27,568 bases of DNA from positions 1-27,568 of the forward strand of contig DATNMZ010000493.1 of assembly GCA_035602095.1 (NCBI GenBank). Reading direction: 5' to 3'. Below the pieces are notes generated by a model. It was not told the DNA's origin. It did not search any database and worked only from the letters and a program-made list of their open reading frames with translations. Position 1 is the stretch's first letter; each line of letters starts with the position of its first letter. Positions 5,160-21,026 of this stretch are shown here, in pieces. Made by a program: the position numbers and the translations under genes. The stretch is from Thermoanaerobaculia bacterium. Lineage in GTDB: Bacteria; Acidobacteriota; Thermoanaerobaculia; UBA5066; Gp7-AA6.

Positions 5160-6659
5160 CTACGCGGGCGCGGGCTCCGGAGCGCGGCGGGGCGCCTGGC
5201 CCGCGGAGAGCGCCCAGTAGAGCGTTCCGGACGCGAAAAAGCCGACGAACCAGCCGTAGGCGTAGAGCGGTTTCAGCACAGGAAAGACGAACCCGCCCCA
5301 CGCGAGGCCGCAACCGACGAGGGTCGCGAGCACGGCCCTCCAGTTCCATCCGCCGGCGTATCGGTAGATTCCGTGCGTCAGGTAGAGGTCCTCCAGCCGG
5401 AGGCGGGTGCGCCGCACGAGCCAGTAATCCGCGATGAGGACCCCCGCGATGGATCCGAGTCCTCCCGAGTAGCCGAGCAGCCAGACGAAGATGTAGCCCG
5501 AAGGGTCGGCGAGAAGTTTCCACGGCTGCAGCAGGATTCCGATGACGCCGGTGATGAGGCCGCCCGTTTTGAAGCGGATCCAGCGCGGGAAGGCGTTGGC
5601 AAAATCGTTCGCCGGAGAGACGACGTTCGCCGCGATGTTGACCGCGAGCGTCGCGACGACGACGGTGAACATCGAGATCGCAACCACGGCGGGCTGCGAG
5701 AACTTGCCGACGAGAACGACCGGGTCCCAGATCGCTTTGCCGTAAATGATGGCGGTGGCGCTCGTGATCAGAACCCCCATCGCGGCGAAGAGAGACATGG
5801 TCGTCGGAAGGGCGGCGATCTGTCCGACCATCTGGTCCCGCTGGCTGCGCCCGTAGCGGGTGAAATCGGGCATGTTCAAGGAGAGCGTGGCCCAGAAGCC
5901 GACCATCGCCGTCAGCGAGGGGACGAAGACCGGAAAGAACTCGCGGAAAGTGCGGAGAGAGCCGGGTTGGGCGAGAAGCGGGCCGAAGCCGTGCGCCCGC
6001 CGGACCGCCCAGACGAGGAGCGCGCCCGTCATCACGAGCACGAATGGAGCCGCCCAGTTCTCCACCTTACGGAGCAGGTCCATGCCGCGGTAGACGATGA
6101 GGATGTTCAGCGCCCAGAAGAAAAAGAAAGAGAGCCACTCCGCGCCCGTGTGTCCGGACCAGCCCGGCCCGAGCCGCGTCGTCCAGCGGGGATCCAGCGC
6201 GGAGAAGAGCGTGTTCAGTGCGGCGCCTCCGATCCAGCACTGAATGCCGAACCAGCCGCAGGCGACGAGAGCGCGCATGATCGCCGGCAGGTTCGACCCG
6301 AGCGTTCCGTAAGCGGCGCGAGCGAACACGGGAAATGGAATGCCGTAGCGCGTTCCCGGATGGGAGTTCAGGAGGATGGGGACGAGCACGATCGTGTTCC
6401 CGAGGAGGATCGTCAAGAGCGCCTGCCACCAGTTCATCCCCGCCGTCATCAACCCCGACGCCATGTAATAGGTCGGTATGCAGTGCGCCATGCTGATCCA
6501 GAGCGCCGCGTAGTTGTAAGTCGTCCAGGTGCGTCGCGAGACGGGCACCGGGAGGAGGTCGCGGTTGGCGAGCGGTGACGCTTCGATCCGAGTCGCGTCG
6601 ATCAACTCGACGCGGCCGTCCCCGTGGCGCTTCTCGTTGCCGTAAACGGTGGTGCGCAC
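5160..6659 (-). CDS. NCS1 family nucleobase:cation symporter (allantoin/uracil permease-like)
   Basis: About 12 hydrophobic segments; WISMAHCIPTY, GTRYGIPFPVFARAAYG, GWFGIQ, FWATLSLNMPDFTRY, NIAANVVSPANDF motifs; divergent from allB. Confidence 0.92.
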   Translation of the reverse strand: MRTTVYGNEKRHGDGRVELIDATRIEASPLANRDLLPVPVSRRTWTTYNYAALWISMAHCIPTYYMASGLMTAGMNWWQALLTILLGNTIVLVPILLNSHPGTRYGIPFPVFARAAYGTLGSNLPAIMRALVACGWFGIQCWIGGAALNTLFSALDPRWTTRLGPGWSGHTGAEWLSFFFFWALNILIVYRGMDLLRKVENWAAPFVLVMTGALLVWAVRRAHGFGPLLAQPGSLRTFREFFPVFVPSLTAMVGFWATLSLNMPDFTRYGRSQRDQMVGQIAALPTTMSLFAAMGVLITSATAIIYGKAIWDPVVLVGKFSQPAVVAISMFTVVVATLAVNIAANVVSPANDFANAFPRWIRFKTGGLITGVIGILLQPWKLLADPSGYIFVWLLGYSGGLGSIAGVLIADYWLVRRTRLRLEDLYLTHGIYRYAGGWNWRAVLATLVGCGLAWGGFVFPVLKPLYAYGWFVGFFASGTLYWALSAGQAPRRAPEPAPA

Positions 6660-6742
6660 GCCGGCTGATTCTAGCGAGTTCCAAGTTTGCGTTGTCCCGC
6701 CAACGGATTTCGGACAGCGGACAACTGATAACTTCTCGAGCC
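6660..6742. promoter_or_regulatory. Compact divergent control region (NCS1 / allB) with two -10-like hexamers and an inverted repeat
   Basis: TAACTT (6729-6734) lies 8 nt before the allB ATG; TAGAAT on - (6668-6673) lies 8 nt before the NCS1 GTG; inverted repeat GTTGTCC (6691-6697) / GGACAAC (6719-6725). No SD on either side. Confidence 0.45.
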
Positions 6743-8089
6743 ATGCCTCCGGCCGAATTCGTACTGAGGAGCCGCCGCGTCCTGACCCCCGAGGGGATGC
6801 TGCCCGCGAGCATCCGGGTCGCCGGAGGTCGGATCACGAGCATCGAGGCCTATTCGGCGCCCGCGCCCGCCGGAGTTCCGATCGAGGAGGCCGGCGACTC
6901 CGTCGTCTTCCCGGGCCTGCTCGATACGCACGTCCACGTCAACGAGCCGGGACGGGCCGACTGGGAGGGTTTCGAGACGGCCACCGCCGCCGCCGCCGCG
7001 GGGGGGATCACGACGCTGATCGACATGCCTTTGAACTCGGTGCCGCCGACGACGACCGTGGAGGCGCTCCGGGAAAAGCTCGCCGTGGCGGCGGGCCGTT
7101 GCGCCGTCGACGTCGGGTTCTGGGGCGGCGTCGTGCCGGGCAACGGCCCGGAGCTGTCCGGGCTTCGGAAGGCGGGTGCCTTCGGCTTCAAGTGCTTTCT
7201 CGCGCCTTCCGGGGTTCCCGAGTTCCCGGAAATGGAAGTCGCAGAGCTTCTCCCGGCGATGCGGCGGCTCGCCCTTCTCGAAGCGGTGCTGCTCGTGCAC
7301 GCCGAAGATCCCGCCCGGCTTCTCGAGCGAAACGGCCCGGGGCGGTCGTACGCGAGTTATCTCGCCTCTCGCCCGCGTTCCGCCGAAAACGCGGCTGTCG
7401 CGCGGATGCTCGATCTCTGCCGCGAGACGGGCGCGCGAGTACACGTGCTGCACCTTTCGAGCGCCGAGGCGCTGGCACCGCTCGAGAAGGCGCGCCGGGA
7501 GGGATTGCCGGTCACCGTCGAGACCTGTCCGCACTATCTGACGTTTGCCGCGGAGGACATCCCCGACGGCGCGACGCCGTTCAAGTGCGCGCCTCCGATT
7601 CGCGAACGGGAGAATCGGGAGCGGTTGTGGGAGGGCTTGCGGGGCGGCGTGATCGACATGGTCGTCTCCGACCACTCGCCTTGCTCGCCGGATCGAAAGA
7701 GGCTCGAGTCGGGAGACTTCTTCGAGGCGTGGGGCGGGATTTCTTCCCTGGAGCTGACCCTGGCGGCCGTCTGGACCGGGGCGTGCGAGCGTGGGATCGA
7801 TCTTTCGCGCGTCGCGGAGTGGATGGGCGCCGCGCCGGCGCGGCTTGCGGGGCTCGGCGGGTCCCGGGGCGCGCTCGCGCCGGGACGGGATGCGGATTTC
7901 GTCGTCTGGGATCCCGAGAAGACCCGTACGGTGGATCCCGCGCTCCTCCAGCAGCGCCACAAGGTGACCCCGTATGCCGGCCGCCGGCTTCAGGGGATCG
8001 TGCGGGCGACCTGGCTTCGGGGTGAGAAGATCTACGAACACGGAAGGCTCCTCTCCCGCTCGAGCGGCGAGATGCTTCTTTCCGGGTGA
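6743..8089 (+). CDS. allB: Allantoinase (metal-dependent amidohydrolase)
   Basis: DTHVHVNEPG metal site, GFKCFL carbamylated Lys, HAE, HVLHLS, VETCPHYL, FKCAPPIR, SDHSP; next to allantoicase. Start ATG 6743 (MPPAEF). Confidence 0.93.
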   Translation: MPPAEFVLRSRRVLTPEGMLPASIRVAGGRITSIEAYSAPAPAGVPIEEAGDSVVFPGLLDTHVHVNEPGRADWEGFETATAAAAAGGITTLIDMPLNSVPPTTTVEALREKLAVAAGRCAVDVGFWGGVVPGNGPELSGLRKAGAFGFKCFLAPSGVPEFPEMEVAELLPAMRRLALLEAVLLVHAEDPARLLERNGPGRSYASYLASRPRSAENAAVARMLDLCRETGARVHVLHLSSAEALAPLEKARREGLPVTVETCPHYLTFAAEDIPDGATPFKCAPPIRERENRERLWEGLRGGVIDMVVSDHSPCSPDRKRLESGDFFEAWGGISSLELTLAAVWTGACERGIDLSRVAEWMGAAPARLAGLGGSRGALAPGRDADFVVWDPEKTRTVDPALLQQRHKVTPYAGRRLQGIVRATWLRGEKIYEHGRLLSRSSGEMLLSG

Positions 8090-9144
8090 CCCGGGAGCCG
8101 GCCCGGGACAGGAGCGCTGTGGCGGATTTCACCGAACTGATCGACCTCGCCGCGGAACGCGTGGGCGGCGCGGTCCTGGCCGCCAACGACGAGTTCTTCG
8201 CTGGCAAGGAGAACCTGTTGAAGTCCGAGAAGCCCGTCTTCCGAGAGGGCGAGTACACGGACCGCGGCAAGTGGATGGACGGCTGGGAGACGCGGCGCCG
8301 GCGAACGCCCGGTCACGACTGGTGCGTCGTTCGGCTCGGTCTTGCTGGAATCCTGCACGGTTTCGTGGTCGACACGACTCACTTCCGGGGCAACGCGCCG
8401 GAGGCATGCTCGATCGACGCGTGCGAGGCCGCGACGCTCGACCCCGAGTCCCCGGGGAACGCGACCGTCCCGTGGACGGAGCTCGTCCCGCGTTCGCCGC
8501 TTCGCGCCGACGCGGAAAACCGCTTCCCGGCGGCCGCGCCCCGCCCGTTCACTCATGTCCGCCTGAACATCTACCCGGACGGGGGTGTGGCGCGTCTTCG
8601 GGTCCACGGAGACGTCGCTCCCGACTGGGCCTCGATTGCGCGCGCGGGCGGCGAGCTCGATCTCGCCGCGGTGGAAAACGGCGGACTCGTGCTCGCCGCG
8701 AGCGACGAGTTCTTCGGCTCGCGGCACAACCTGGTGATGCCGGGCCGGGGAACGGGTATGAGCGACGGATGGGAGACGCGCCGCCGGCGCGGCCCCGGGC
8801 ATGACTGGGCGATCGTGCGGCTCGGCCGTTCCGGAACGGTGCGCCGGATCGACGTCGACACGGCGCACTTCAAGGGAAACGCTCCGGGGAGCTGCTCCGT
8901 CGAGGTCTGCCGCGCGCCGGGCGCCGGCTCTTTGCAGCTGACCGAAGCCGGCCGCGCCTGGAAAGAGCTGCTCCCGGAGACGAAACTCCAGCCCCACACG
9001 CTGCACCGTTTCGAACGGGAGCTGCGCTCCGCCGGCGAGGCGACGCACGCGCGCTTGAACATCTTCCCGGACGGAGGCGTGAGCCGGCTCCGCCTCTGGG
9101 CGCCGGCTCCCGCGGCTCCGCCAGCCGCGCCAGGGGGCGAGTGA
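8086..9144 (+). CDS. alc: Allantoicase
   Basis: Two internal repeats, each with DEFF...DGWETRRRR..GHDW.(V/I)VRLG and RLNI(Y/F)PDGGV(A/S)RLR; GTGA overlap with the allB stop. Confidence 0.95.
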   Translation: MTREPARDRSAVADFTELIDLAAERVGGAVLAANDEFFAGKENLLKSEKPVFREGEYTDRGKWMDGWETRRRRTPGHDWCVVRLGLAGILHGFVVDTTHFRGNAPEACSIDACEAATLDPESPGNATVPWTELVPRSPLRADAENRFPAAAPRPFTHVRLNIYPDGGVARLRVHGDVAPDWASIARAGGELDLAAVENGGLVLAASDEFFGSRHNLVMPGRGTGMSDGWETRRRRGPGHDWAIVRLGRSGTVRRIDVDTAHFKGNAPGSCSVEVCRAPGAGSLQLTEAGRAWKELLPETKLQPHTLHRFERELRSAGEATHARLNIFPDGGVSRLRLWAPAPAAPPAAPGGE

Positions 9145-9641
9145 GCCTCGCGGCCGCGAGCATCGAGCGGCTGGACGCCCTCCCTCCCGACGCCGCCGAG
9201 CGTGAGCTCCTGGCCTGCTGCGGCTCGCGCGAATGGGCGCGGCAAATGGCGCTCGCCCGCCCGTTTCGGGAGCCGGCCGCTCTCTACCAGGCCGCGGATC
9301 GCATCTGGCGCTCGCTCTCCGAGTCGGACTGGCGCGAGGCGCTGGCCGCTCATCGCCGGATCGGGGACGCGGCCGCGTCCGGCGACGCCGCGGAGGAGCA
9401 ATCCGGAGCTCTCTCGGCGCCGGCATCGATCCGGGAAAGTCTCGCGCTCTCGAACGCCGAGTACGAGGCCCGCTTCGGCCACATGTTCGTCGTTTGTGCC
9501 TCGGGAAAGAGCGGGGAGGAGATGCTGGCCCTTTGCCGGGACCGCCTCCATAATGATCCGAAAGCGGAGCTGCGGCTCGCCGCGCAAGAGCAGCGGAAGA
9601 TCACGCGGCTCCGGCTGGAGAAACTGGCGCGCACGGAATGA
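9141..9641 (+). CDS. uraD: OHCU decarboxylase
   Basis: CCGSREW, AHRRIG (catalytic His), EQSG, NAEYEARFGHMFVVCASG, EQRKITRLRL; GTGA overlap with alc. Confidence 0.9.
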   Translation: MSLAAASIERLDALPPDAAERELLACCGSREWARQMALARPFREPAALYQAADRIWRSLSESDWREALAAHRRIGDAAASGDAAEEQSGALSAPASIRESLALSNAEYEARFGHMFVVCASGKSGEEMLALCRDRLHNDPKAELRLAAQEQRKITRLRLEKLARTE

Positions 9642-9973
9642 CGGCGATCTCGACGCACGTCCTCGATACCGCCCGCGGTCTGCCGGCCGGGGGAATGGCA
9701 ATGCTTCTCGAGGTCCGGGCGGAGGACGGGACCTGGTCGCCGCTCGGGGAGGCCGCCTCGGACGCGGATGGAAGAGCGACGCTGCCCGGCGGGCCGCTCC
9801 GGCGCGCCACGTACCGCCTGACTTTTCGCACGGCCGCGTACTTCGAGGCCCGGCGGGTCGAGGCGTTTTATCCCGAGGTCCAGGTCGTCTTCGACGTTCA
9901 CGACCCTTCGCGGCGGCACCACGTTCCCCTGCTGCTGTCTCCCTGGGGGTATTCGACGTATCGGGGCACCTAG
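9638..9973 (+). CDS. uraH: 5-hydroxyisourate hydrolase (transthyretin-like)
   Basis: ISTHVLDTARGLPA N-terminal signature, FYPEV, HHVPLLLSPWGYSTYRG(T); ATGA overlap with uraD. Confidence 0.93.
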   Translation: MTAISTHVLDTARGLPAGGMAMLLEVRAEDGTWSPLGEAASDADGRATLPGGPLRRATYRLTFRTAAYFEARRVEAFYPEVQVVFDVHDPSRRHHVPLLLSPWGYSTYRGT

Positions 9974-9975
9974 GC

Positions 9976-10809
9976 GTGCTCGCCGAAAACAGCTACGGCA
10001 AGTCCGGGATCCGTCTCGTCAAGGTGATCCGCCGCGAGGGCGGCCACAGGATCCGGGACCTGACCGTCTCCATTGCGCTCGAGGGAGACTTCGAGGCCGC
10101 GCATGTCGCGGGAGACAACTCGGCCGTCCTGCCGACGGACACGATGAAGAACACGGTGTACGCGCTGGCTCGCACGCATCCGGTCGATTCGATCGAGTCC
10201 TTCGCGCTGGAGCTGTCCGCTCACTTTCTCAAGGAAGACGGTCCGGCGTCCGTCGCGCGTGTCGGCATTTCGGAGCGCCCGTGGGAGCCTCTCGCGGGCG
10301 GCTCGGGGGGACCCTCCCACGCCTTCCTCCGGCCGGGGGCCGAGCGAAGGGTGACGCGCGTTGACCGGACCCGCGCCGGGGTCTCCGTCGAATCCGGGAT
10401 CGAAGACCTGACGATCTTGAAATCCGCGGGCTCCGGTTTCACCGGCTACGCCCGGGACCGTTACACGACCTTGAAGGAGACGGAGGACCGGATCCTCGCG
10501 ACCGCGATGGAGGCCCTGTGGCTCTACGAGCCTCGAGAGATCCCCTGGGACCTCGCCGCACGCGCCGTGCGAAGCACGCTTCTCGAGACGTTCGCCGGCC
10601 ACGCGAGCGCCTCCGTCCAGCACACCCTGTACGCGATGGGGCAGGCCGTCCTCGACCGACACGCCGAGGTCTCCCGAATCCGCTTGACGATGCGCAACAA
10701 GCATCACCTGCTCGTCGATCTCTCCCCCTTCGGCCTGGAGAACCCCAACGAGATTTTCGTCGCGACCGAGGAGCCGTACGGCCGGATCGAGGCGACCTTG
10801 AAGAGGTAG
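9976..10809 (+). CDS. pucL: Uricase (cofactor-independent urate oxidase)
   Basis: C-terminal 277 aa of track ORF 9202..10809 from GTG 9976: NSYGKSGIRLVKV, LPTDTMKNTVY catalytic motif, LKSAGSGF, DRYTTL, SVQHTLY, NKH, PYGRIEA. Stand-alone, not fused to uraD. Confidence 0.93.
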   Translation: MLAENSYGKSGIRLVKVIRREGGHRIRDLTVSIALEGDFEAAHVAGDNSAVLPTDTMKNTVYALARTHPVDSIESFALELSAHFLKEDGPASVARVGISERPWEPLAGGSGGPSHAFLRPGAERRVTRVDRTRAGVSVESGIEDLTILKSAGSGFTGYARDRYTTLKETEDRILATAMEALWLYEPREIPWDLAARAVRSTLLETFAGHASASVQHTLYAMGQAVLDRHAEVSRIRLTMRNKHHLLVDLSPFGLENPNEIFVATEEPYGRIEATLKR

Positions 10810-10935: not shown

Positions 10936-12282
10936 CTACTTCCTCCTCGCCTTCAGGATCCGGAGGAAGGAACGCCCGCGGAGCTCGTCTACGGTCAGGC
11001 CGCTCTTTGCGACGGCCTCCTCCTCCGTGATCGCCCCGCAGCTCACGGCGCGGAGAAAGTAGTTCAAGAGTCCCTGGCCCGTCGCGGCGTCGTCGAAGAC
11101 CTCGCCGACGAGCGTCGCCTGTCCCGCCTTCTCCACGAAGTTGTTCAGCCTCGCCGAAGCGGCGGGGAGCCCCTCGAGGAAAAAAGCGTAGAGAGCGGCG
11201 TACCGCGTCGGCAGCTGCGCCGGATGCAGGTCCCACCCCTGGTAGATCCCGCCGACGAGCGAATGGCGGACGTGCTCGTAGTGGAGCTTCCAGGCGGCGT
11301 GCACCGTTTCGCGATTCTGCGCGAGCTCGCGCCGCGTCAGCGTTCGCTCGCCGGAATGGTGCGGCGGGATCGGAAGAACGTTCGTGGCGCCGTCGGAGAT
11401 CCACACGCCCGTGCCCGCGAGCGCGACCTGCATCGCCTCCCGAGCGAAGTCGCAGGCCGGATGAAGCATGTGCTGGTGCGCCGCCGTGATGTTCAAGGAG
11501 GCGGTGTAGTCGTAAATGCCGAAGTGCGCGGCCGAGCACCGTCCGCGCGCCGCGCCCACGAGGGCTCCAATCGCGATGGCGCCGCGCTCGTCGACGACCG
11601 ACTGGGGAGTCTCGACCATGATCTCCAGGCGGAGCGTCCCGGGTGGAATCGGGAGGGCCTTTTCCAGCGCTTCGAGGATGTCCGCCAGGGCCGAGACTTG
11701 GGCCGGCAAAGTCACCTTCGGAAGCGTCACGACGAAGTTGTCGGGGAGTCCGCCGGAATCCTCGACCAGCCGGGTGATGAACAGATCGAGGGTCCGGATT
11801 GTGCGCGACGCGAGCTCGTCGCCGAGCGACTTGATACGGATGCCGATCGACGCCGGGAGAGTTCCGGCCGCCTTTCCGGTCGCGACCTCGCGCGCCGCCG
11901 CCAGGGCGTGGCCGTCCTCCTCCGCGTCGGGGCGGTTGCCGTAGCCGTCTTCGAAATCGATGCGGTAGTCCTCGACCGGCTCCCGGCGGAGCTTCTCGGA
12001 GACCCGGGTCCAGACGAGGGGAGCGAGCGACGGCTCGATTCCCAGAACGCCGGCGAGGGCGTCGGGCGTCGGAGCAAATTCCTCCAGGAAGCGGAGAGCG
12101 AGAGCTCCGAGCCTCGGGGCGGTGTCCGACTGGAAGACCTGCGCACCTCCGTAGACCGTGTGGACGGGCTGTCGGCGCACGGATTCGCCGGGATACTTTC
12201 GCGCGAAGTCCGCGTTGGGCGCCGAAAGGCTCGCGCGGAAGCCCGCGGTCCGATCGGGGTCGATCGTCGTCCGAGGGTTCAT
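10936..12282 (-). CDS. Uncharacterised CitE / malyl-CoA lyase-like Mg-dependent TIM-barrel enzyme (DUF6986-like)
   Basis: Start ATG 12282 after SD GGAGGGAG (448 aa). QPVHTVYGGA, RIDFEDGYG, GIRIKS, VTLPKV, IMVETPQ, HFGIYDY, GWDLHPAQL map onto the CitE-family DxED / R / LPKV / E / FGxxD / HPxQ motifs. The DUF number is from memory. Confidence 0.8.
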   Translation of the reverse strand: MNPRTTIDPDRTAGFRASLSAPNADFARKYPGESVRRQPVHTVYGGAQVFQSDTAPRLGALALRFLEEFAPTPDALAGVLGIEPSLAPLVWTRVSEKLRREPVEDYRIDFEDGYGNRPDAEEDGHALAAAREVATGKAAGTLPASIGIRIKSLGDELASRTIRTLDLFITRLVEDSGGLPDNFVVTLPKVTLPAQVSALADILEALEKALPIPPGTLRLEIMVETPQSVVDERGAIAIGALVGAARGRCSAAHFGIYDYTASLNITAAHQHMLHPACDFAREAMQVALAGTGVWISDGATNVLPIPPHHSGERTLTRRELAQNRETVHAAWKLHYEHVRHSLVGGIYQGWDLHPAQLPTRYAALYAFFLEGLPAASARLNNFVEKAGQATLVGEVFDDAATGQGLLNYFLRAVSCGAITEEEAVAKSGLTVDELRGRSFLRILKARRK

Positions 12283-13100
12283 GCCGTCTCCCTCCAGAAC
12301 TGCTCCAGCAGATTGGCCGCGACTTCCCGGCGGTACCCGGCCGTCGAGCGCACGTCGTCGATGGGCTGGATCTCTTCCACGAGCGCGCTCCGCCCTGCCC
12401 GGATCGATCCGCGCGAGGCGAGCGCGGCCTCGGTCTTCGGAAGCCGGATCACGGTCGGCGCGACCGAGCCCAGCGCCACGCGCGGGCGCTCCGAGCGGAT
12501 CGCCGCCAGGACGACCTTCGAGATCGCCTGCGCCGCCCGGGTGCCGACCTTTCGGAACCACTGCCGGCCTTCCAGGCGGGGGATCTCGATCGCGACGATG
12601 AGCTCGTCCGGCCGCATCACGGATTGGCGGTAGCCGGTGTAGAAAGAGTCAAACGGTATGCGCCGCGTCGCTTCCGCGCTCCGGAGGACGACGACCGCCT
12701 CCGCGACGGCGAGAACGGGCAGCGTGTCGCCCGCCGGCGAGGCGTTCGCCACGTTGCCTCCGATCGTTCCCCGGTTCTGGATCTGCGCGCCGCCGATCTC
12801 CCGGGCCGCGGCGGCGAGGATGGGAAGGCGCTTCTCGACGAGCGGGGAGCGGAGGATGTCCCGGTAGGTGGCCGTCGCCCCGATCGAAAGCGCGCCCTCG
12901 CGAACCTTGATGCGGCGCAGCTCGGCGAGCGGGGAGAGATCGACGAATCGCGTCTGCCGGAGCGTCCCGAAATTCAGATGGACGTAGACGTCGGTACAGC
13001 CGGCGAGCGGAGTCAGGGGGCCGCCGTCGCGGAGCATGACGAGGGCTTCGCGGAGAGAGCGAGGCTCGAGGAGAGTCAGCGAGGAGATGGCCGTGCGCAT
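12279..13100 (-). CDS. Xanthine dehydrogenase family FAD-binding subunit (PucC/CoxM-like)
   Basis: LAGCTDV, IGGAQIQNRGTIGGNVANASPAGD, FRKVGTRAAQAISKV, IDDVRSTAGYR. Confidence 0.9.
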   Translation of the reverse strand: MRTAISSLTLLEPRSLREALVMLRDGGPLTPLAGCTDVYVHLNFGTLRQTRFVDLSPLAELRRIKVREGALSIGATATYRDILRSPLVEKRLPILAAAAREIGGAQIQNRGTIGGNVANASPAGDTLPVLAVAEAVVVLRSAEATRRIPFDSFYTGYRQSVMRPDELIVAIEIPRLEGRQWFRKVGTRAAQAISKVVLAAIRSERPRVALGSVAPTVIRLPKTEAALASRGSIRAGRSALVEEIQPIDDVRSTAGYRREVAANLLEQFWRETA

Positions 13101-13128: not shown

Positions 13129-13638
13129 TCATCGCCGCGCTCCCGCCGGCTCGAGCTTGCGAGCCGGGGCGTTTCTGCTCCGCCGCGAGGGCGCGCGCCG
13201 CTTTCGGGGCGCCCTCGCCGCCTTTCGGACCGCCCGGTAGATCCCCTCGTACCCGGTGCAGCGGCAGATGTTTCCGGCGAGCCCGATCCGAATTTCCTCC
13301 AGGCCCGAGTCGCGCGGCAACGCCGCGGCGGCGAGAATCATCCCGGGAGTGCAGATCCCGCACTGGGCTCCGCCTTCGGAGACGAACGCCTGCTGGAGCG
13401 CCGCCTTCCCCCTCAGACCTTCGATCGTCGTCACGCGGGCGCCCCGCACCTGCGCGAACGGGATGAGGCAGGAGTTCACCGGTTCGCCGTCCACGAGCAC
13501 GGTGCACGCCCCGCACTCGCCCTCCCCGCACCCTTCCTTGGTTCCCGTCAGGCCGCACTCTTCCCGCAGCACGTCCAGGAGACGCTTCATCGGGTGCGTC
13601 CGGACCTTGACCGGCCGCCCGTTCAACGAGAAGCGCAC
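13129..13638 (-). CDS. Xanthine dehydrogenase family 2x[2Fe-2S] subunit (PucE/CoxS-like)
   Basis: C-terminal 169 aa of track ORF 13129..15489 from GTG 13638: GTKEGCGEGECGACTV, NSC, QCGICTPG, GNICRCTGY. Overlaps the end of the large subunit. Confidence 0.9.
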   Translation of the reverse strand: MRFSLNGRPVKVRTHPMKRLLDVLREECGLTGTKEGCGEGECGACTVLVDGEPVNSCLIPFAQVRGARVTTIEGLRGKAALQQAFVSEGGAQCGICTPGMILAAAALPRDSGLEEIRIGLAGNICRCTGYEGIYRAVRKAARAPRKRRAPSRRSRNAPARKLEPAGARR

Positions 13639-15731
13639 GAAGCTTCCAGGATCCTCTCCGGCGTGGCCGGGATCCGGCGGATGTCGAGGCCCAGATGGCG
13701 GATCGCATTCACGACGGCCGGCGCGGGCCCGTCGATGGGCATTTCGCCGATCCCCTTGGCGCCGTGCGGGCCGTGCCGGTACGGGTTCTCGAGGATCACG
13801 GAATCGATCGGCGGAGTGTCGAGTGTCGTCGGAACCACGTAGTTGGTCATCTGCGCGTTCTCCATCCGCCCGTCGCGCAGAACGACTTCCTCGAGCAGGG
13901 CATAGCCAAGTCCTTGAGCCGTTCCCCCCTCGATCTGGCCGGCGGCGAGGACCGGGTGGATCGCCCGGCCGATCTCGCAGACGGCGGTCACGCGGACGGG
14001 CCGGACCTCGAAGGTGACGGGGTCCCGCTCGACTTCCACGACGTTGCAGCCCCATCCGTAGGCGCCGTAGGCGTCGCCCCGGTACGTCTCGTCGCTCCAT
14101 TCGAGCTCGCGCGGCTTTTCGTATTCGCGCGTCACCACGAGCGGTCCGTGGAGCTTGCGGTACCGGCGCGGGGACATCGTGCCGAGGCGCGCCTTCATTT
14201 CGAGCGCGCAGTTCTCGAGAATCTTTCCGACGACCATGCATGTCCGAGAGGCGACGGTCGGGCCGCTGTCGGGAACTCGCGCGGTGTCGGCCTCGGAGAC
14301 CTCCACGCGGTCGTACGGGATCCCGAGCGCGTCGGCCACGATCTGCGCATGGATCGTCCGCGTTCCCTGTCCGATCTCCGTGGACGCGACGAGAATGCGA
14401 GCGCCTTCGTCCGTCAGCTCGAGAGAGGCGCGCGAGGCGAGCTTCACCTCGCCCCCGCCCGTAAACCCCGAGCCGTGGAAGAAGAGGGACAGCCCGATCC
14501 CCCGATTCGTCCCGGCGAGGCTCTTCCGGAGGCGGCGAAAGCCGCTCCTCTTCACGGCCTCCCGGAGCACGGCCCGCGCGCTGCAGTCCTCTCCGAGCTT
14601 CTGTCCGGTGGCGGTGGTATCTCCGGGCTTGAACGCGTTGACTTCCCGCAGCCGCACGGGGTCCATTCCGAGGGTCTCCGCGATCCGCTCCATGTGGACT
14701 TCCGAAGCGAACTGCGTCTGCGGCGCTCCGAACCCCCGAAACGCGCCGTTCGGCGGGGTGTTCGTCCGAACGACCCGGCCGCGCACGCGGACGTGATCGC
14801 AACGGTACGGGCCCGTCGCGTGGAGCACGCCGCGCGACAGAACGACGGGAGAAAGCGTCACGTACGCCCCTCCGTCCATCCGCACGTCGATGTCCATCGC
14901 GACGATCTTTCCGTCGCGCCGGACGCCGGTGCGATGTCGGACGACCGCCGGATGCCTCTTCGTGGTGGCGACCATGTCTTCGACGCGGTCGTAGATCATC
15001 TTGACGGGCCGGTTGGCCTTCCACGCGAGGATCGCCGCGTGCCCGGCGAGGATCGACGGATATTCCTCCTTGCCCCCGAACCCGCCCCCCGTCTCGGTCT
15101 GGACGACGCGGACCTTCTGCGCGGGCAGCCCGAGCAGAGTGACGAGCGCCCGGTGAACGTAGTAGGGGCACTGGAGGGAGCCGTAGACGGTGATTCCGCC
15201 ATCCTCGGGGACCGCGATCACGCCGTTGGGCTCGATGTAGAGCTGCTCCTGGTGTCCGGTCCGATACTCCCCCTCGACGACGAGGTCCGCGAGGGAGAAG
15301 CCGCGGTCGAGAGAGCCCTTTTCGATCCGGATCTCCTTGAACACGCGCGGCGACTTCTCCGGGTCGAAAACGGGAGGCGTGGGCTCGTACTCGATCTCGG
15401 CGCGGGCCGCGAGAAGCGCTTCCCGGACCGGGTGGGCGACGAGCAGGATCGGCTCCGCGAAGTGACGCACGTGCCGTTCGACGAGACACGGCTGATCGTC
15501 TTCGATCAGGGCGACGACGTTTTTCCCGGGGATGTCTCGGAAATCGGCGACGACGTACCCCGAAGTGTCGAAGCCCGGGCGCAGGGATCGGATCTCTCCG
15601 CAGGGGATGGTCGAGCGGATCGTCGTCCCGTGCAGCATGCCGGGGAAGGAGAGATCGTCCACGTACCGGGCGGCGCCCGTGACCTTGGAGCGCCCTTCCT
15701 TGCGGGGGACGTTACGTCCGACGGACGGCAT
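13623..15731 (-). CDS. Xanthine dehydrogenase molybdopterin-binding subunit (PucD-like)
   Basis: KVTGAARY, GHQEQLYIE, GGGFGGKEE, AFRGFGAPQ, FHGSGFT, GQGT, GPTVASR, QIEGG, GAKGIGE. By eye the equivalents of bovine XDH Q767, E802, R880, F914, F1009 and E1261 are present. Confidence 0.88.
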   Translation of the reverse strand: MPSVGRNVPRKEGRSKVTGAARYVDDLSFPGMLHGTTIRSTIPCGEIRSLRPGFDTSGYVVADFRDIPGKNVVALIEDDQPCLVERHVRHFAEPILLVAHPVREALLAARAEIEYEPTPPVFDPEKSPRVFKEIRIEKGSLDRGFSLADLVVEGEYRTGHQEQLYIEPNGVIAVPEDGGITVYGSLQCPYYVHRALVTLLGLPAQKVRVVQTETGGGFGGKEEYPSILAGHAAILAWKANRPVKMIYDRVEDMVATTKRHPAVVRHRTGVRRDGKIVAMDIDVRMDGGAYVTLSPVVLSRGVLHATGPYRCDHVRVRGRVVRTNTPPNGAFRGFGAPQTQFASEVHMERIAETLGMDPVRLREVNAFKPGDTTATGQKLGEDCSARAVLREAVKRSGFRRLRKSLAGTNRGIGLSLFFHGSGFTGGGEVKLASRASLELTDEGARILVASTEIGQGTRTIHAQIVADALGIPYDRVEVSEADTARVPDSGPTVASRTCMVVGKILENCALEMKARLGTMSPRRYRKLHGPLVVTREYEKPRELEWSDETYRGDAYGAYGWGCNVVEVERDPVTFEVRPVRVTAVCEIGRAIHPVLAAGQIEGGTAQGLGYALLEEVVLRDGRMENAQMTNYVVPTTLDTPPIDSVILENPYRHGPHGAKGIGEMPIDGPAPAVVNAIRHLGLDIRRIPATPERILEASCASR

Positions 15732-15757: not shown

Positions 15758-17092
15758 TCACCGGGCTCCGGACGCGGCGAAGGATTCGCGGAGGATCGCG
15801 AGGGACTCCTGGATGTCCGGCGCGGTCACCGTCAGCGCGGGCGCGATGCGGAAGACGTTTCCGTAGAGCCCGCCCTTCCCGATCAGAAGCCCGCGCTGCC
15901 GCGCTTCCTCGAAAACGCGATTCGTCATCACCGGATCGGGCGTCCGGTCGCCTGCCGTCTCGTCGGAGACGAGCTCGATCGCCTGCATGAGTCCCATCCC
16001 GCGCACGTCGCCGATCGAGCGAGGGAAGCGCGCCTTCAGGTCCTCGAGCCCGGAGCGGAGCAATGCGCCCATGCGCGCCGCATTGCCGGGCAGGTCTTCT
16101 TCTTCGATGATCTGAAGAGTGGCGTTCGCCGCCGCGGTCGATACGGGGTTTCCTCCGAACGTCGAGATCGTGAGCGCCTTCAACGCCGACGCAATCTCCG
16201 GCGTGGCAATGGTGATCCCGAGAGGGAGCCCGTTTGCGATTCCTTTTGCCGCCGTCAGAATGTCGGGCTCGACGCCGTAGTGCTCGATGCCCCACATCTT
16301 TCCGCCCGTCCGGCCGAAGCCCGTCTGGACCTCATCGCAGATGAAGAGGCCGCCGAACTTCCGAATGATTCCGACGGCGATCTCGAAGTACTCGAGGGGA
16401 GGCGTGATGAATCCGCCGACTCCCTGGATCGGCTCGGCGAGGAACCCGGCGATGCGGCCCGTCGTCGTCGTTCGGATGAGCTCCTCGATGTCCTTCGCGC
16501 AGGCGACCCCGCACGACGGGTAGGTCAGGTGAAGCGGGCACCGATAGCAGTACGGCGACACCGCGTGCTTCACGCCGGCGATCTGGGAGGGAAGCGCGCG
16601 CCAGGTGGAGTGGCCCGTTAGCGACTGCGCGAGCGTCGAGCGGCCGGAATAGCCGTGGCGCAGCGCGATGATCTCCGTCGAGCCGGTCGCGAGCTCGGCC
16701 ATCATGACGCCGGTCTCGTCGGCCTCGGTGCCGGAGGCGGTGAAACAGGTCTGCTTCAGATTTCCCGGCGTGAGGCGCGCGAGCCGCTCGGCGAGCTCGA
16801 CGACGGGCAGCGTCGGGTACAGCGTCGAAACGTGCGAGAGCCGGTCGAGTTGCGCGCGCACGGCCGCGTTGACGCGGTCGTCGGCATGACCGATCGAGAC
16901 CGTCAGGATCCCGCCGAAAAAGTCGAGATATTCGTTTCCATCGGCGTCCCGGATCCGGAGGCCCTTGCCCTCGGTCAGGACGATCGGCTCCTTGTAGTAC
17001 TGGAGAGTCGCGGGAAAGAGAAACTCCTTGTGTTTCTCGCGGACCGAGCGCGTCAGCTCCGACGTCGGCGCCTGGGTCTTGGTGGTGCTCAT
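15758..17092 (-). CDS. Class III PLP aminotransferase, AGXT2/PYD4-like (probable beta-alanine / beta-aminoisobutyrate aminotransferase)
   Basis: YLDFFGGILTVSIGH, AEPIQGVGG, FICDEVQTGFGRTG, AKGIANG (PLP Lys), STFGGNP; SD GGAGGAG; sits between dihydropyrimidinase and xdh. Confidence 0.8.
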   Translation of the reverse strand: MSTTKTQAPTSELTRSVREKHKEFLFPATLQYYKEPIVLTEGKGLRIRDADGNEYLDFFGGILTVSIGHADDRVNAAVRAQLDRLSHVSTLYPTLPVVELAERLARLTPGNLKQTCFTASGTEADETGVMMAELATGSTEIIALRHGYSGRSTLAQSLTGHSTWRALPSQIAGVKHAVSPYCYRCPLHLTYPSCGVACAKDIEELIRTTTTGRIAGFLAEPIQGVGGFITPPLEYFEIAVGIIRKFGGLFICDEVQTGFGRTGGKMWGIEHYGVEPDILTAAKGIANGLPLGITIATPEIASALKALTISTFGGNPVSTAAANATLQIIEEEDLPGNAARMGALLRSGLEDLKARFPRSIGDVRGMGLMQAIELVSDETAGDRTPDPVMTNRVFEEARQRGLLIGKGGLYGNVFRIAPALTVTAPDIQESLAILRESFAASGAR

Positions 17093-17108
17093 GCTCTCTC
17101 CTCCGCGA

Positions 17109-18488
17109 TTACGATCGGGGACTGCGTTTCAAGAACGAGCCGGCTCCGGCCCGTCCGGTGAATTTGCCGTTTTCGACGATCACCCGGCCGCGCGAAAGCA
17201 CCGTCTCCGCCGCTCCGGTGACCGACCGGCCTTCGTACGGGTTGTAGTCCACCTTCATGTGGAGCGTCCGGGCGGAGAGAGTCACTTTTTTCTCCGGGTC
17301 GAAGATGACGAGATCGGCGTCCGAGCCCGGGGCCACCGTGCCCTTGCGCGGAAAGAGGCCGAAGATCTTCGCAGGTGCGGTGGACGTCAGCTCCACGAAC
17401 CGGTGGATGGAGATCCGGCCGGTGCGCACGCCGCCGTCCCAGACGAGGCTCATGCGGGTCTCGATGCCGGGCGCTCCGTTGGGGATCTTCGAGAAATCGT
17501 CGGCTCCGAGCTCCTTCTGGCCGCGCATACAGAACGGGCAATGGTCGGTCGAAATGGCCTGCAGGTCGTTTCCGGCGAGGCCGCGCCAGAGGCGCTCTTC
17601 GTTGCCGGCCGCGCGCAGGGGCGGGCTCATGACGTACTTTGCGCCCGCGAACCCCGGCTCCTCGTAGTTCGCGTAGGAGAGAAAGAGGTACTGGGGGCAG
17701 GTCTCCGCGTACGCGGGGAGGCCGCGGTCCCGCGCCTCGGTCACCATTTCGAGCGCTTCCGCCGCCGAGAGGTGCACGATGTAGATCGGCACGCCGGCGA
17801 TCTCCGCGAGCGCGATCGCCCGGTGGGTCGCCTCCGCTTCGGCGCGCGCCGGCCGCGTCAGGGCGTGGTATTTCGGCGCCCGCTCTCCGCGGGCGAGAGC
17901 CTTCTGGACGAGCACGTCGATCACGCCGCCATTCTCGGCGTGCATGCAGATCGTGCCGCCGTTCTCCCGCGTTCGAAGCAGCGCCCGGAAGATCGAGGCG
18001 TCGTCGAGCATGAAGACGCCCGGGTACGCCATGAAAAGCTTGAAAGAGGAGATGCCCTCGCGGACCAGGGCGTCCATCTCGTCCTCGACGCTGCCGTCGA
18101 GCTCGGTGACGATCATGTGAAACCCGTAGTCGATCGCCGCCTTGCCCTCCGCCTTCTTCATCCAGGCGTCCCGGGCGTGGCGGAGCGTCTGCCCGCGGTA
18201 CTGGATCGCGAAATCGACGACGGCGGTCGTTCCCCCGTGCGCCGCGGCGATCGTGCCGGACTCGAAGTCATCCGCCGACGTCGTTCCTCCGAAAGGCATG
18301 TCGAGGTGTGTATGGACGTCGATCCCGCCGGGGAGCACGTACCGCCCCGCGGCGTCGATGGTGCGGTCGGCCTCCATCGAGAGCGAGGTGCCGATGCACG
18401 CGATCTTTTCGTTTTCGATGAGGACGTCCCCCCGGTACAGGTCCGAGGCGGTCGCGATGGTCCCGTTGCGGATGAGCGTCTTCGTCAT
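17109..18488 (-). CDS. hydA: Dihydropyrimidinase / D-hydantoinase
   Basis: PGGIDVHTHLDMPFGGT, SFKLFMAY, MHAENG, YIVHLS, AETCPQYL, YVMSPPLR, STDHCPF, IPNGAPGIE. Confidence 0.95.
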   Translation of the reverse strand: MTKTLIRNGTIATASDLYRGDVLIENEKIACIGTSLSMEADRTIDAAGRYVLPGGIDVHTHLDMPFGGTTSADDFESGTIAAAHGGTTAVVDFAIQYRGQTLRHARDAWMKKAEGKAAIDYGFHMIVTELDGSVEDEMDALVREGISSFKLFMAYPGVFMLDDASIFRALLRTRENGGTICMHAENGGVIDVLVQKALARGERAPKYHALTRPARAEAEATHRAIALAEIAGVPIYIVHLSAAEALEMVTEARDRGLPAYAETCPQYLFLSYANYEEPGFAGAKYVMSPPLRAAGNEERLWRGLAGNDLQAISTDHCPFCMRGQKELGADDFSKIPNGAPGIETRMSLVWDGGVRTGRISIHRFVELTSTAPAKIFGLFPRKGTVAPGSDADLVIFDPEKKVTLSARTLHMKVDYNPYEGRSVTGAAETVLSRGRVIVENGKFTGRAGAGSFLKRSPRS

Positions 18489-18493
18489 TGCTC

Positions 18494-19363
18494 TTACACG
18501 AGCTGGGCCATCGCCTCGTACGTTTCGGGCCGCCGGTCCCGGTAGAACTGCCAGATGCGCCGGACTTCCTCGATCTGGTCGAGGTCCATCTCGGCCGTGA
18601 TCAGCTCATCTTTGTCTTCCGACCCGACCGCCAGGAAATTGCCTCGCGGATCGACGAAATAGGAAGAGCCGTAGAACCTGCCGATGTTCCAGGGCGCCTC
18701 CGTCCCGACCCGGTTGCTGCAGGCCATGAAGTATCCGTTCGCGACGGCGTGCGCGGGCTGTTCGAGCTTCCAGAGATACTGCGAAAGCCCGGCGACCGTG
18801 GCCGACGGATTGAAGACGATTTCCGCGCCGTTCAACCCCAGGAGCCGCGCCCCCTCGGGGAAGTGCCGGTCGTAGCAGATGTACACGCCAACTTTCGCGT
18901 AGCGGGTCGCAAAGACGGGGTAGCCGAGGTTGCCCGGCTTGAAGAAATACTTTTCCCAGAAGCCCGACGTGTGCGGAATGTGGTTCTTGCGGTACTTGCC
19001 GAGGTACGAGCCGTCCGCGTCGTACACGGCCGCGGTGTTGTAGTAGACGCCCGCCTGTTCGCGCTCGTAGACGGGGATCACCATCGCCATGCGGTACTTT
19101 TTCGCGTACTGCGCGAGCCGCTGCGTGGTCGGGCCCGGAACGGGCTCCGCCATGTCGTACCAGCGCGCGTCCTGGCTGGGGCAGAAGTACGGGCCGTTGA
19201 AGACCTCCTGGAGCCCCAGAACCTGGACGCCCCTCTTCCCGGCTTCTTCGATGAACGGAATGTGCGCCTCGATCGCCGCCTCGGAGATCTTCTCGACGGG
19301 CGCCGAAGCGTCGGAGATCGGATTCGCGCACTGGATCAGCCCGCCGAGAAGCTTACGAGGCAT
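18494..19363 (-). CDS. Nitrilase-superfamily beta-ureidopropionase (beta-alanine synthase, PydC-like)
   Basis: Glu-Lys-Cys triad in LQEVFNGPYFC, YRKNHIP, ICYDRHFPE. Position next to dihydropyrimidinase favours ureidopropionase over N-carbamoylputrescine amidase, which typically has CWDQWFPE. Confidence 0.85.
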   Translation of the reverse strand: MPRKLLGGLIQCANPISDASAPVEKISEAAIEAHIPFIEEAGKRGVQVLGLQEVFNGPYFCPSQDARWYDMAEPVPGPTTQRLAQYAKKYRMAMVIPVYEREQAGVYYNTAAVYDADGSYLGKYRKNHIPHTSGFWEKYFFKPGNLGYPVFATRYAKVGVYICYDRHFPEGARLLGLNGAEIVFNPSATVAGLSQYLWKLEQPAHAVANGYFMACSNRVGTEAPWNIGRFYGSSYFVDPRGNFLAVGSEDKDELITAEMDLDQIEEVRRIWQFYRDRRPETYEAMAQLV

Positions 19364-19393
19364 TGGAATGTCCTCCGTCCGGTCGCCGGTTCG

Positions 19394-20899
19394 TCAGAAC
19401 CATCGCGAGATGACCACCTTCTTGTCGGTGTAGAACTCGAAGGCGTCCCTCCCGTGCACTTTGAGGTCTCCGAAAAAGCTGTCCTTCGCGCCGCCGAACG
19501 GGAAGTAGGCCATCGGCGCCGCCACACCGATGTTCACTCCCACCATCGAAGCGGAGGCGTGCCGGGCGAACTCGCGCGCCGCCTTTCCGCTCGACGTGAA
19601 GATGGACGTGGCGTTCGCGTTCGGGTGCGCATGCATCAGCGCGATCGCTTCGTCGAGTGTCTTCACCGGCGTGATCGAAGCGACCGGTCCGAAGATCTCT
19701 TCGCGGCCGATCGCCATTTCCGGCGAAACGTCGTCGAAGATCGTGGGGCCGAGGAAGAACCCCTGCTCGCGCCCGGGGACGTTCACGCGCCGGCCATCGA
19801 CGACGAGCTTCGCTCCCTCGGCGACGCCTTTCTCGATGTATCCGACGACCTTCTCGCGGTGGCGGCCGCTGATGACCGGGCCCATGTCGACGCCGGGCTC
19901 TGCGCCATCGCCGACCTTGAGCGCCCGCACCGACTCCGCGAGCCTGTCGCGGGCCGTCGCGTGCGCCTCGCCGACCGGAACGAGGACGCTTCCGGCGAGG
20001 CAGCGCTCGCCGGCGCAACCGTAGAAGGACTCGGAGATGACCGGCACGGCGCGGTCCCAGTTGGCGTCCGGCATCACCACGACGAAGTTCTTCGCTCCCC
20101 CGAGGGCCTGAACGCGTTTTCCGGCGTGCGTCGCCCGGCGGTAGACCGCGCGGGCCACGGGCGTCGATCCGACGAAGGACACGGCGGCGATTCCGGGATG
20201 GTCGCAGATCGCTTCGACGACTTCGCGGCCGCCGTTGACCAGGTTCACGACCCCCGCGGGCAGCCCGCACTTCTCGAGCAGCTCGATCATCCGCTTCTGC
20301 GAAAGGGGCACCTGCTCCGAGGGCTTGACGATGAAGACGTTGCCCGTCGCGATCGCGAACGGGATGAACCACAGCGGCACCATCGCGGGAAAGTTGAAAG
20401 GCGCGATGGCGGCGCAGACGCCGACCGGCTGCCGGATGACCTGGCAGTCGATTCCGGAAGAGATGTTCTCGAGCCCGTATCCCATCGAGAGGGACGGCGT
20501 TCCGCACGCGACTTCTACGCACTCGATTCCGCGCCGGACGCTGCCGCGGGACTCGTCGAGCGTCTTGCCATGCTCGGTCGTGACGATCCGCGCGAGCTCC
20601 TCGAAATGCTCCTCGAGCTCGACCTTGAACCGGAAGAGCACCTGGGCGCGGGTCACGGCCGGCGTGTCCCGCCAGGCGGGAAACGCCTGGCGCGCGGCGG
20701 CGACGGCCTGGTCCACCTCGGCGGCCGAGGAGAGAGGCGCGCGGGCGATCACCTCCCCGCGCGCCGGGTTGGTCACGTCCTGGAATTTGGCGGCGCTCGA
20801 GGCGACCCAGCGGCCGCCGATGAAGTTCGGAAGAACGGGCGCGCCGCCGGAAGCGCCGGAACGGGCGGACCTGCCTTCCGAAATCGCGGTACCGGACAT
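19394..20899 (-). CDS. mmsA: CoA-acylating (methyl)malonate-semialdehyde dehydrogenase
   Basis: ATG 20899 after strong SD AAAGGAGG; APFNFPAMVPLW, KPSEQVP, SFVGSTPVA, LGGAKNF, GCAGERCLA, EEIFGPV, FPFGGAKDSFFGD. Confidence 0.93.
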   Translation of the reverse strand: MSGTAISEGRSARSGASGGAPVLPNFIGGRWVASSAAKFQDVTNPARGEVIARAPLSSAAEVDQAVAAARQAFPAWRDTPAVTRAQVLFRFKVELEEHFEELARIVTTEHGKTLDESRGSVRRGIECVEVACGTPSLSMGYGLENISSGIDCQVIRQPVGVCAAIAPFNFPAMVPLWFIPFAIATGNVFIVKPSEQVPLSQKRMIELLEKCGLPAGVVNLVNGGREVVEAICDHPGIAAVSFVGSTPVARAVYRRATHAGKRVQALGGAKNFVVVMPDANWDRAVPVISESFYGCAGERCLAGSVLVPVGEAHATARDRLAESVRALKVGDGAEPGVDMGPVISGRHREKVVGYIEKGVAEGAKLVVDGRRVNVPGREQGFFLGPTIFDDVSPEMAIGREEIFGPVASITPVKTLDEAIALMHAHPNANATSIFTSSGKAAREFARHASASMVGVNIGVAAPMAYFPFGGAKDSFFGDLKVHGRDAFEFYTDKKVVISRWF

Positions 20900-20938
20900 C
20901 GCGACCTCCTTTGGGGGAATGGGAAGAATATCGCGGTC

Positions 20939-21026
20939 CACGTCGCTGCGCGCTGCGCGGGGGATCTGGCTTCGCCACCGGCCACGTCGCTACGCCCTGC
21001 GCGGGGGATCTGGCTTCGCCACCGGC
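20939..21026. repeat. Tandem duplication of a 44-bp unit
   Basis: 20939-20982 and 20983-21026: CACGTCGCT(G/A)CGC(G/C)CTGCGCGGGGGATCTGGCTTCGCCACCGGC, two mismatches. Confidence 0.9.

Follow-up and report, generated by a model that had tools for sequence, protein, structure and literature searches.

In the breakdown of purines, allantoicase yields ureidoglycolate, and the enzyme that usually follows is AllA (PF04115), a cupin-like lyase of the AllA/DAL3 type. A different solution came to light in zebrafish (Danio rerio), where a malate-synthase-like protein found through its co-occurrence with allantoicase and uricase was revealed by nuclear magnetic resonance, circular dichroism and kinetics to be a stereospecific ureidoglycolate lyase, devoid of malate synthase activity and keeping the glyoxylate-binding core (PMC10120013, Dembech et al. 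2023). The ureidoglycolate lyase group of this enzyme (UGL), true paralogues of malate synthase A some 560 aa long and present in eukaryotes only, is marked by the changes Arg276Ile and Trp365Met, a 2-aa insertion and a lost coenzyme A (CoA) site, and malate synthase genes are also known in purine operons (PMC10120013). Many allantoicase-type urate degraders are without a recognisable gene for the step that turns ureidoglycolate into glyoxylate and urea. In this regard we analysed a DNA stretch of 27,568 nucleotides, hereafter the window, which is the entire contig DATNMZ010000493.1 (C493) of a Thermoanaerobaculia metagenome-assembled genome (MAG; 2.73 Mb, 89% complete), and in particular a minus-strand gene whose product belongs to the Pfam family DUF6986. 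A preliminary description had taken this product for a CitE-like enzyme that joins the glyoxylate of purines to the acyl-CoA of pyrimidines. In our assessment the chances are slightly better than even that it is the ureidoglycolate lyase of the urate/allantoin pathway encoded in the window, cleaving (S)-ureidoglycolate to yield glyoxylate and urea. This reading is drawn from the co-occurrence of DUF6986 with allantoicase, from AllA being mostly not found, from the presence of another consumer of glyoxylate in the genome, and from the zebrafish precedent.

Among 301 genomes of Acidobacteriota, DUF6986 is present in 39 (E<1e-90) and allantoicase in 29, with 27 genomes carrying both, and among 251 genomes of Actinomycetota the corresponding numbers are 24, 31 and 21. 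Two unpublished genomes, G023 (Acidobacteriota) and G393 (Actinomycetota), are counted here; without them, DUF6986 is present in 26 of 28 and in 20 of 30 allantoicase-bearing genomes. Of the two exceptions in Acidobacteriota, one is an allantoicase broken by stop codons, the other a 230-contig assembly. In actinomycete genomes of 7.5-9 Mb the two genes lie far apart and still co-occur. The genomes are related to one another, so that the counts overstate the independence of the observations.

The gene neighbourhood was surveyed in 80 DUF6986 loci from about ten phyla, searched with the window's own proteins over at most 10 kb per side. The 5-hydroxyisourate (HIU) hydrolase gene was found in 60 of these loci, the 2-oxo-4-hydroxy-4-carboxy-5-ureidoimidazoline (OHCU) decarboxylase gene in 54, allantoicase in 53, allantoinase in 49, the flavin adenine dinucleotide (FAD) subunit gene of xdh in 35 and uricase in 33, and each of five pyrimidine genes in 4-8. 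Uricase adjoins DUF6986 directly (<300 nt) in 20 loci, as does HIU hydrolase in 11 and the xdh FAD gene in 6, and AllA was found in the flanks of none of the 80. DUF6986 therefore belongs to the urate-to-ureidoglycolate module, and in a phylogenetic tree the window protein falls within well-supported clades of purine-context genes only. That the family tracks the allantoin genes, as the preliminary description had anticipated, is thus borne out. The purine-pyrimidine supercluster of the window is, on the other hand, a local feature of a few Acidobacteriota, and the proposed joining of purine glyoxylate to pyrimidine acyl-CoA is not supported, given the rarity of pyrimidine genes at these loci. 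Ureidoglycolate lyase, which the same description had listed as an alternative that would refute it, fits the distribution better than a purine-pyrimidine junction.

The step after allantoicase appears vacant in most of these genomes. AllA was not found in the host of the window (89% complete), where DUF6986 has one copy only. Of the genomes with allantoicase, 24 of 29 Acidobacteriota and all 31 Actinomycetota gave no AllA match, and neither did 9 of 10 genomes of other phyla that carry DUF6986. That AllA was not found in most DUF6986 genomes examined is the pattern expected from non-orthologous replacement, in which DUF6986 would take over the AllA reaction at the same position of the pathway with an unrelated fold. 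As another candidate for the fate of ureidoglycolate, the genome's only Ldh_2 protein was considered as a ureidoglycolate dehydrogenase and rejected, with 166 bits against an AllD cut-off of 496 and a gene that adjoins one for L-2-hydroxyglutarate oxidase. At a Melainabacteria-type locus (L074), the genes flanking DUF6986 gave no indication for or against the alternative route through allantoate amidohydrolase and ureidoglycine aminohydrolase.

The glyoxylate that such a lyase would release has a canonical consumer in this genome, since contig C254 encodes a malate synthase A (L002:1024-2604; 372 bits, all three MS domains). Isocitrate lyase was not found in the 89% complete genome, and a malate synthase A in the company of no isocitrate lyase suggests glyoxylate from sources such as purines rather than the glyoxylate cycle. 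Earlier observations that the window holds no canonical malate synthase and no glyoxylate carboligase are correct, the latter enzyme not being found even genome-wide; a DUF6986 protein standing in for malate synthase does not, however, agree with the enzyme on C254, nor with G067, where malate synthase A and DUF6986 share one ureide neighbourhood at a distance of ~6 kb. Moreover, the anti-correlation with aceB/glcB that a replacement would predict is not observed, as canonical malate synthase is carried by 19 of the 39 DUF6986 genomes of Acidobacteriota and by 107 of the 262 others.

The family assignment of the window protein is clear-cut. It matches PF22484 (DUF6986) with 609.7 bits (E 3.1e-183) over profile positions 3-408 of 408, against a gathering score of 27 bits. 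The malate synthase barrel model PF01274 (MS_TIM-barrel) gives 23.0 bits over 79 residues, below its gathering cut-off of 26.4, and the models of the N- and C-terminal malate synthase domains (PF20656, PF20659) find no match in the protein. Similarly, PF03328 (HpcH/HpaI aldolase / citrate lyase) reaches 23.1 bits against a gathering cut-off of 25 (in a six-frame search of the genome, 23.8 bits at DUF6986, and 25.5 only with neighbouring stretches added), and the haloarchaeal model of L-malyl-CoA/beta-methylmalyl-CoA lyase, NF041626, 23 bits against an equivalog cut-off of 500. The term CitE-like holds at the superfamily level only, the protein's own family being DUF6986. The CitE membership previously proposed therefore stands for the superfamily fold and the catalytic residues, and falls for the HpcH/CitE, malate synthase and malyl-CoA lyase families, all of whose cut-offs are missed. 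Clustered at 50% identity, DUF6986 comprises 2446 representatives below E 0.001 and 668 below 1e-30. The family is seen in Acidobacteriota, Actinomycetota, Verrucomicrobiota, Gemmatimonadota, Bacteroidota, Cyanobacteria/Melainabacteria, Bdellovibrionota, Ignavibacteriota, Elusimicrobiota and others, at least ten phyla altogether. Its members are listed in databases as 'citrate lyase beta subunit' (JGI), 'phosphoenolpyruvate kinase' (NCBI) or 'aldolase/citrate lyase family protein'; for the first two names we found neither a model cut-off nor a paper that backs them. Among the homologues so named are P0010, P0017, P0021 and P0030.

A search of the Protein Data Bank (PDB) with the window protein alone gave no match. 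A profile search gave weak matches only, to CitE, malyl-CoA lyase and malate synthase; for 3R4I the hmmsearch E value was 9.5e-8, and for malyl-CoA lyase 5e-6. The AlphaFold2 model, built on 62 representatives, has a mean local confidence (pLDDT) of 96 and a predicted template modelling score (pTM) of 0.93, and consists of a TIM barrel with a C-terminal helical lid. Its closest structures (VIA-align) are CLYBL with CoA, the human citramalyl-CoA lyase (Z 27.6), malyl-CoA lyase (26.2) and two uncharacterised CitE-like proteins (about 26), followed by the malate synthase of H. volcanii (25.2), malate synthase A of E. coli (23.7) and malate synthase G (~21-21.7), with identities of 12-20% and a best Foldseek E value of 5e-9.

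The motifs quoted in the preliminary description are all present: DFED at 109-112, GIRIKS with R149, VETPQ with E224, FGIYD with D258 and HPAQ at 353-356. Other key residues are K189, W350/D351, H353/P354 and D397/D398, the latter in a DDAAT motif of the C-terminal lid. D109, E111, D112, R149, K189, E224, R248, D258, W350, D351, R360 and D397 are invariant in the 62 representatives (38-60% identity) and in 89 further sequences, so that the motifs are not due to chance. In the hhalign alignment with malate synthase A (probability 84%), which covered residues 184-385 only, E224 and D258 fall on the two Mg2+ ligands and W350-x-x-H353-P354 on WVAHP. The PDB profile search aligns DFEDG, the Mg ligands, HPAQ and the lid residue D398, which are invariant across the family, with their equivalents in 3R4I and malyl-CoA lyases. 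R149 and DFED are placed by motif only, and the equivalences of DFED/R149 and DDAAT to malate synthase rest on motif similarity and the 3R4I alignment. Judged from the sequence, the conserved residues would prove an active enzyme of the CitE/malate synthase superfamily. Where malate synthases have the GRWDY arginine (Arg276 in the E. coli enzyme A), the window protein has Ile, and 89 of 89 DUF6986 sequences have T/V/A/L/I/P. Absence of this arginine was considered as a mark of ureidoglycolate lyases and rejected, given that CoA-dependent CitE and malyl-CoA lyases are also without Arg there; it sets DUF6986 apart from malate synthase and not from the CoA lyases.

A catalytic cycle can be proposed in which ureidoglycolate is bound through its alpha-hydroxy-carboxylate to the Mg2+ that E224 and D258 hold, R149 polarises this group, and a lid aspartate of the DDAAT motif, D398 or D397, takes the hydroxyl proton. 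The C-N bond would then break, urea would leave and glyoxylate would be released. The chemistry would be the retro-addition that a C-C bond undergoes in malyl-CoA lyase and malate synthase, the leaving group here being urea. The glyoxylate would then pass to the separate canonical malate synthase A of the genome. With DUF6986 placed at the end of the xdh run as a translationally coupled cistron, the final step of the purine pathway would be linked to its first.

As observed for the zebrafish UGL, DUF6986 is found in the malate-synthase/CitE fold superfamily, shows the same kind of genomic association and has a residue other than Arg at the Arg276 position. Unlike the fish enzyme, it is a separate and shorter bacterial Pfam family (about 450 aa) that scores 23 bits on the malate synthase barrel model, and it keeps the Trp (W350) that the fish enzyme changed to Met. 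The window protein is no malate synthase A orthologue and thus falls outside the UGL group, so that the likeness is functional and contextual. With the CitE-like superfamily (malyl-CoA/beta-methylmalyl-CoA lyase, CLYBL, citrate lyase beta subunit, 3R4I, 3QQW), where its best structure and profile matches are found (Z 26-28), DUF6986 has in common the DxED-type, Mg-Glu, Mg-Asp and HP(A/S)Q motifs and the lid Asp. It is, however, 14-19% identical to these enzymes and exceeds them in length by about 100-150 residues; it has an inserted helical stretch following strand 1 (about 47-104) and, at 262-316, a loop that is conserved, and its context is ureide genes instead of acetate or propionate assimilation. 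With the malate synthases A, G and H (haloarchaeal), it shares the barrel, the Mg ligands, the WxxHP motif, a DAAT-type lid motif and glyoxylate as a metabolite, and differs in scoring below the PF01274 cut-off, in being without the GRWDY Arg and in coexisting with a canonical malate synthase with no replacement.

Several observations weigh against assigning DUF6986 to ureidoglycolate. The catalytic Arg, the Glu/Asp Mg2+ ligands and the lid Asp are conserved throughout the superfamily whatever the reaction (PMC3832036) and, being common to every CoA-dependent member, fail to identify the substrate. The nearest structural neighbours all bind acyl-CoA, and the conserved P354 aligns with the helix-capping Pro against which the adenine packs in malate synthases (PMC3112382). 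CoA adenosine sits in this superfamily in a hydrophobic surface pocket with contacts mostly to backbone (PMC3832036, PMC3112382), and sequence therefore cannot decide on acyl-CoA binding in DUF6986. The zebrafish UGL is metal-independent, in contrast with the Mg-centred mechanism proposed here. With respect to distribution, 12 of the 39 Acidobacteriota and 3 of the 24 Actinomycetota with DUF6986 give no allantoicase match, and five such allantoicase-free genomes that were checked (98-99% complete) have no HIU hydrolase and no ureidoglycine aminohydrolase. The copies outside a ureide context keep all active-site residues and may use another substrate, so that a broader function around glyoxylate is conceivable. 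A deep clade of its own (100/100 support), in which the radA-PilZ neighbours are conserved, is made up of some of these orphans, and others fall inside the main clade. On the side of AllA, the five remaining allantoicase-bearing Acidobacteriota belong to a single genus, and their matches score weakly, lie far from the cluster and occur together with DUF6986. G558, a 10.7-Mb MAG labelled as a deltaproteobacterium, has a strong AllA (171 bits, C2:3928227-3928715) and a purine-context DUF6986 (locus L031), and the two are therefore not strictly exclusive. Neither is present in ten allantoicase-bearing Actinomycetota, so that other solutions for ureidoglycolate exist and at least one further unrecognised way is probable. 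Finally, we found no paper on the DUF6986 family and no biochemical evidence for any member.

Part of this pattern would be accounted for by an enzyme that works without CoA on glyoxylate or on some other small 2-oxo or 2-hydroxy acid and is linked to the ureides through glyoxylate handling, such as a class-II aldolase of glyoxylate and pyruvate or a lyase or hydrolase of a different glyoxylate adduct or ureide. We consider this unlikely. The weak HpcH/HpaI aldolase match (23 bits) is in its favour, as is the occurrence of DUF6986 in genomes without a detectable ureide pathway, beside radA/PilZ or phage-like portal and capsid genes; these unrelated contexts suggest that the substrate is not exclusive to purine breakdown. 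Structure and profile matches nevertheless favour CitE, malyl-CoA lyase and malate synthase over the HpcH aldolases, the co-occurrence is strong with allantoicase specifically and seen in two phyla, and the neighbourhoods hint at no partner substrate such as pyruvate.

A CoA-dependent Claisen-type enzyme, either a non-canonical malate synthase or a (methyl)malyl-CoA lyase, would condense glyoxylate from purines with acetyl-CoA or propionyl-CoA, possibly the MmsA products from uracil and thymine. Such an activity, which we regard as quite unlikely, would be in line with the acyl-CoA enzymes that are its nearest structures (from CLYBL and malyl-CoA lyase to the malate synthases at Z 21-25), with the retention of the Arg, the Mg ligands, the lid Asp and the helix-capping Pro, and with the operon that DUF6986 shares with mmsA in the window. 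A glyoxylate consumer would also suit the DUF6986 genomes that have no ureide pathway, and 9 of the 12 allantoicase-free Acidobacteriota with DUF6986 have no match to canonical malate synthase. Ureide genes and not pyrimidine genes are, however, the usual neighbours, canonical malate synthase is not anti-correlated with DUF6986 and accompanies it in this genome and in the G067 neighbourhood, the scores on the MS_TIM-barrel, HpcH_HpaI and haloarchaeal malyl-CoA lyase models (23 bits) all stay under the cut-offs, and the step from ureidoglycolate to glyoxylate would be left here without a gene. A carbon junction of purines and pyrimidines, in which DUF6986 condenses glyoxylate in a CoA-dependent manner or, as a bifunctional enzyme, cleaves ureidoglycolate and hands the glyoxylate to acetyl- or propionyl-CoA from MmsA, strikes us as very unlikely. 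Overall, the distribution tests have weakened the CoA-dependent interpretation, and the earlier proposal is partly supported: it was right on the superfamily and on the tie to the glyoxylate end of purine breakdown, but the tests that it had itself suggested lend no support to a junction, to CoA dependence or to DUF6986 replacing malate synthase. An accessory or non-catalytic function, for instance in maturing or regulating the molybdenum hydroxylase, which the ATGA coupling and the FAD gene directly upstream in 6 of 80 loci might recall, is hardly credible for a protein with the fold of an enzyme family and a complete metal and acid-base catalytic set invariant across phyla, which adjoins uricase or HIU hydrolase more often than xdh genes and has no xdh FAD subunit within 10 kb in 45 of 80 loci.

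If DUF6986 is indeed a ureidoglycolate lyase, a function would be gained for a family of at least ten phyla and 668 clusters (50% identity, below E 1e-30), and the annotation of purine-nitrogen recycling could be corrected in soil Acidobacteriota, Actinomycetota, Verrucomicrobiota, Bacteroidota and others, together with the names 'citrate lyase beta subunit' and 'phosphoenolpyruvate kinase'. DUF6986 would then be a bacterial variant of an already known kind of enzyme. Its recruitment would be independent of that of the eukaryotic UGL, so that the malate-synthase/CitE scaffold would have been turned to C-N lyase chemistry on at least two occasions, once among eukaryotes and once among bacteria.

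The features of the window are collected in Table 1. Its closest protein relatives are from Acidobacteriota/Thermoanaerobaculia. DUF6986 is the eighth and last gene of a tightly packed minus-strand run, with gaps of 5-30 nt or overlaps, in the order mmsA-type dehydrogenase, CN-hydrolase, dihydropyrimidinase, class-III aminotransferase, the molybdopterin, 2Fe-2S and FAD subunits and DUF6986; the run converges on the uricase operon, whose end product is ureidoglycolate. This last position and the ATGA coupling that had been described are both confirmed. Read directly, the ATG of DUF6986 (12282-12280) and the TGA that ends the FAD-subunit gene upstream (12281-12279) overlap, and the minus strand at this start reads GGAGGGAG-ACGGC-ATGA.

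Table 1. Coordinates of the genes and signals in the window, with the evidence for each.
Feature	Position	Strand	Evidence
DUF6986 gene, candidate ureidoglycolate lyase	10936..12282	(-)	open frame, 448 aa by translation; PF22484
ATGA overlap (translational coupling), DUF6986 start / FAD-subunit stop	12279..12282	(-)	sequence read directly
Shine-Dalgarno-like GGAGGGAG, 5 nt before DUF6986 ATG	12288..12295	(-)	sequence read directly
FAD-binding subunit, xanthine-dehydrogenase-family molybdenum hydroxylase	12279..13100	(-)	PF00941 (E 1.7e-46), PF03450
2Fe-2S subunit, same hydroxylase	13129..13638, start approximate (GTG near 13638)	(-)	Fer2, Fer2_2; translation
Molybdopterin subunit	13623..15731	(-)	PF02738, PF20256, PF01315
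Pyrimidine-catabolic genes, upstream part of (-) run	15758..20941	(-)	Pfam; TIGR02033, TIGR01722
Convergent ureide operon	6575..10809	(+)	Pfam matches
Allantoinase	6575-8089	(+)	TIGR03178 568 bits, cut-off 358
Allantoicase	8086-9144	(+)	Pfam
OHCU decarboxylase	9141-9641	(+)	Pfam
HIU hydrolase	9638-9973	(+)	Pfam
Uricase	about 9970-10809	(+)	Pfam
NCS1-family permease (cytosine/purine/uracil/allantoin type)	5160..6659	(-)	PF02133, E 1.9e-128

The pyrimidine genes encode a class-III aminotransferase, a dihydropyrimidinase (TIGR02033, 628 bits), a beta-ureidopropionase-like CN-hydrolase and a CoA-acylating methylmalonate-semialdehyde dehydrogenase (TIGR01722, 582 bits), the two scores given being above their cut-offs. 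The best NCBIfam match of the molybdopterin subunit is TIGR03196 (xanthine dehydrogenase subunit D, pucD), with 469 bits against an equivalog cut-off of 784; the subunit stays well under every xanthine dehydrogenase equivalog cut-off, and the substrate of the hydroxylase is assigned from context only. A PreA-like dihydropyrimidine dehydrogenase subunit is encoded at 21343-22482; it is short (379 aa) and reaches 303 bits against a PreA equivalog cut-off of 335, and no PreT partner was recognised among the window genes scanned.

Outside the window, the ten Actinomycetota with allantoicase and with neither DUF6986 nor AllA are G341, G371, G374, G385, G440, G442, G455, G466, G478 and G490. The deep DUF6986 subclade, 42-45% identical to the window protein, is seen at L093:7563-11327 (G243), L097:8135-10616 (G162) and L098:7525-10884 (G277), where it retains all active-site residues. 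Directly downstream of it, L093 and L098 have a RadA/Sms-like gene, and on the opposite side each of the three loci has a PilZ-domain gene. The genomes with this subclade gave no allantoicase match, and two that were checked further, G243 and G225, gave no HIU hydrolase match either. Main-clade copies at L092:5189-10084 (G109) and L095:8340-11342 (G180), 55-56% identical, lie just downstream of phage-like genes, which in L092 are an SPP1-type portal and Phage_capsid_4, and no ureide pathway was seen in G109 and G180. Back in the window, the 126-bp spacer between the convergent stops of uricase and DUF6986 (10810-10935), in which neither an intrinsic terminator nor a sigma-70 promoter was detected, is made nearly entirely of heptamer arrays, with the units (TTGTCAG)x4, (TGACAGG)x5 and AACTGA-type.

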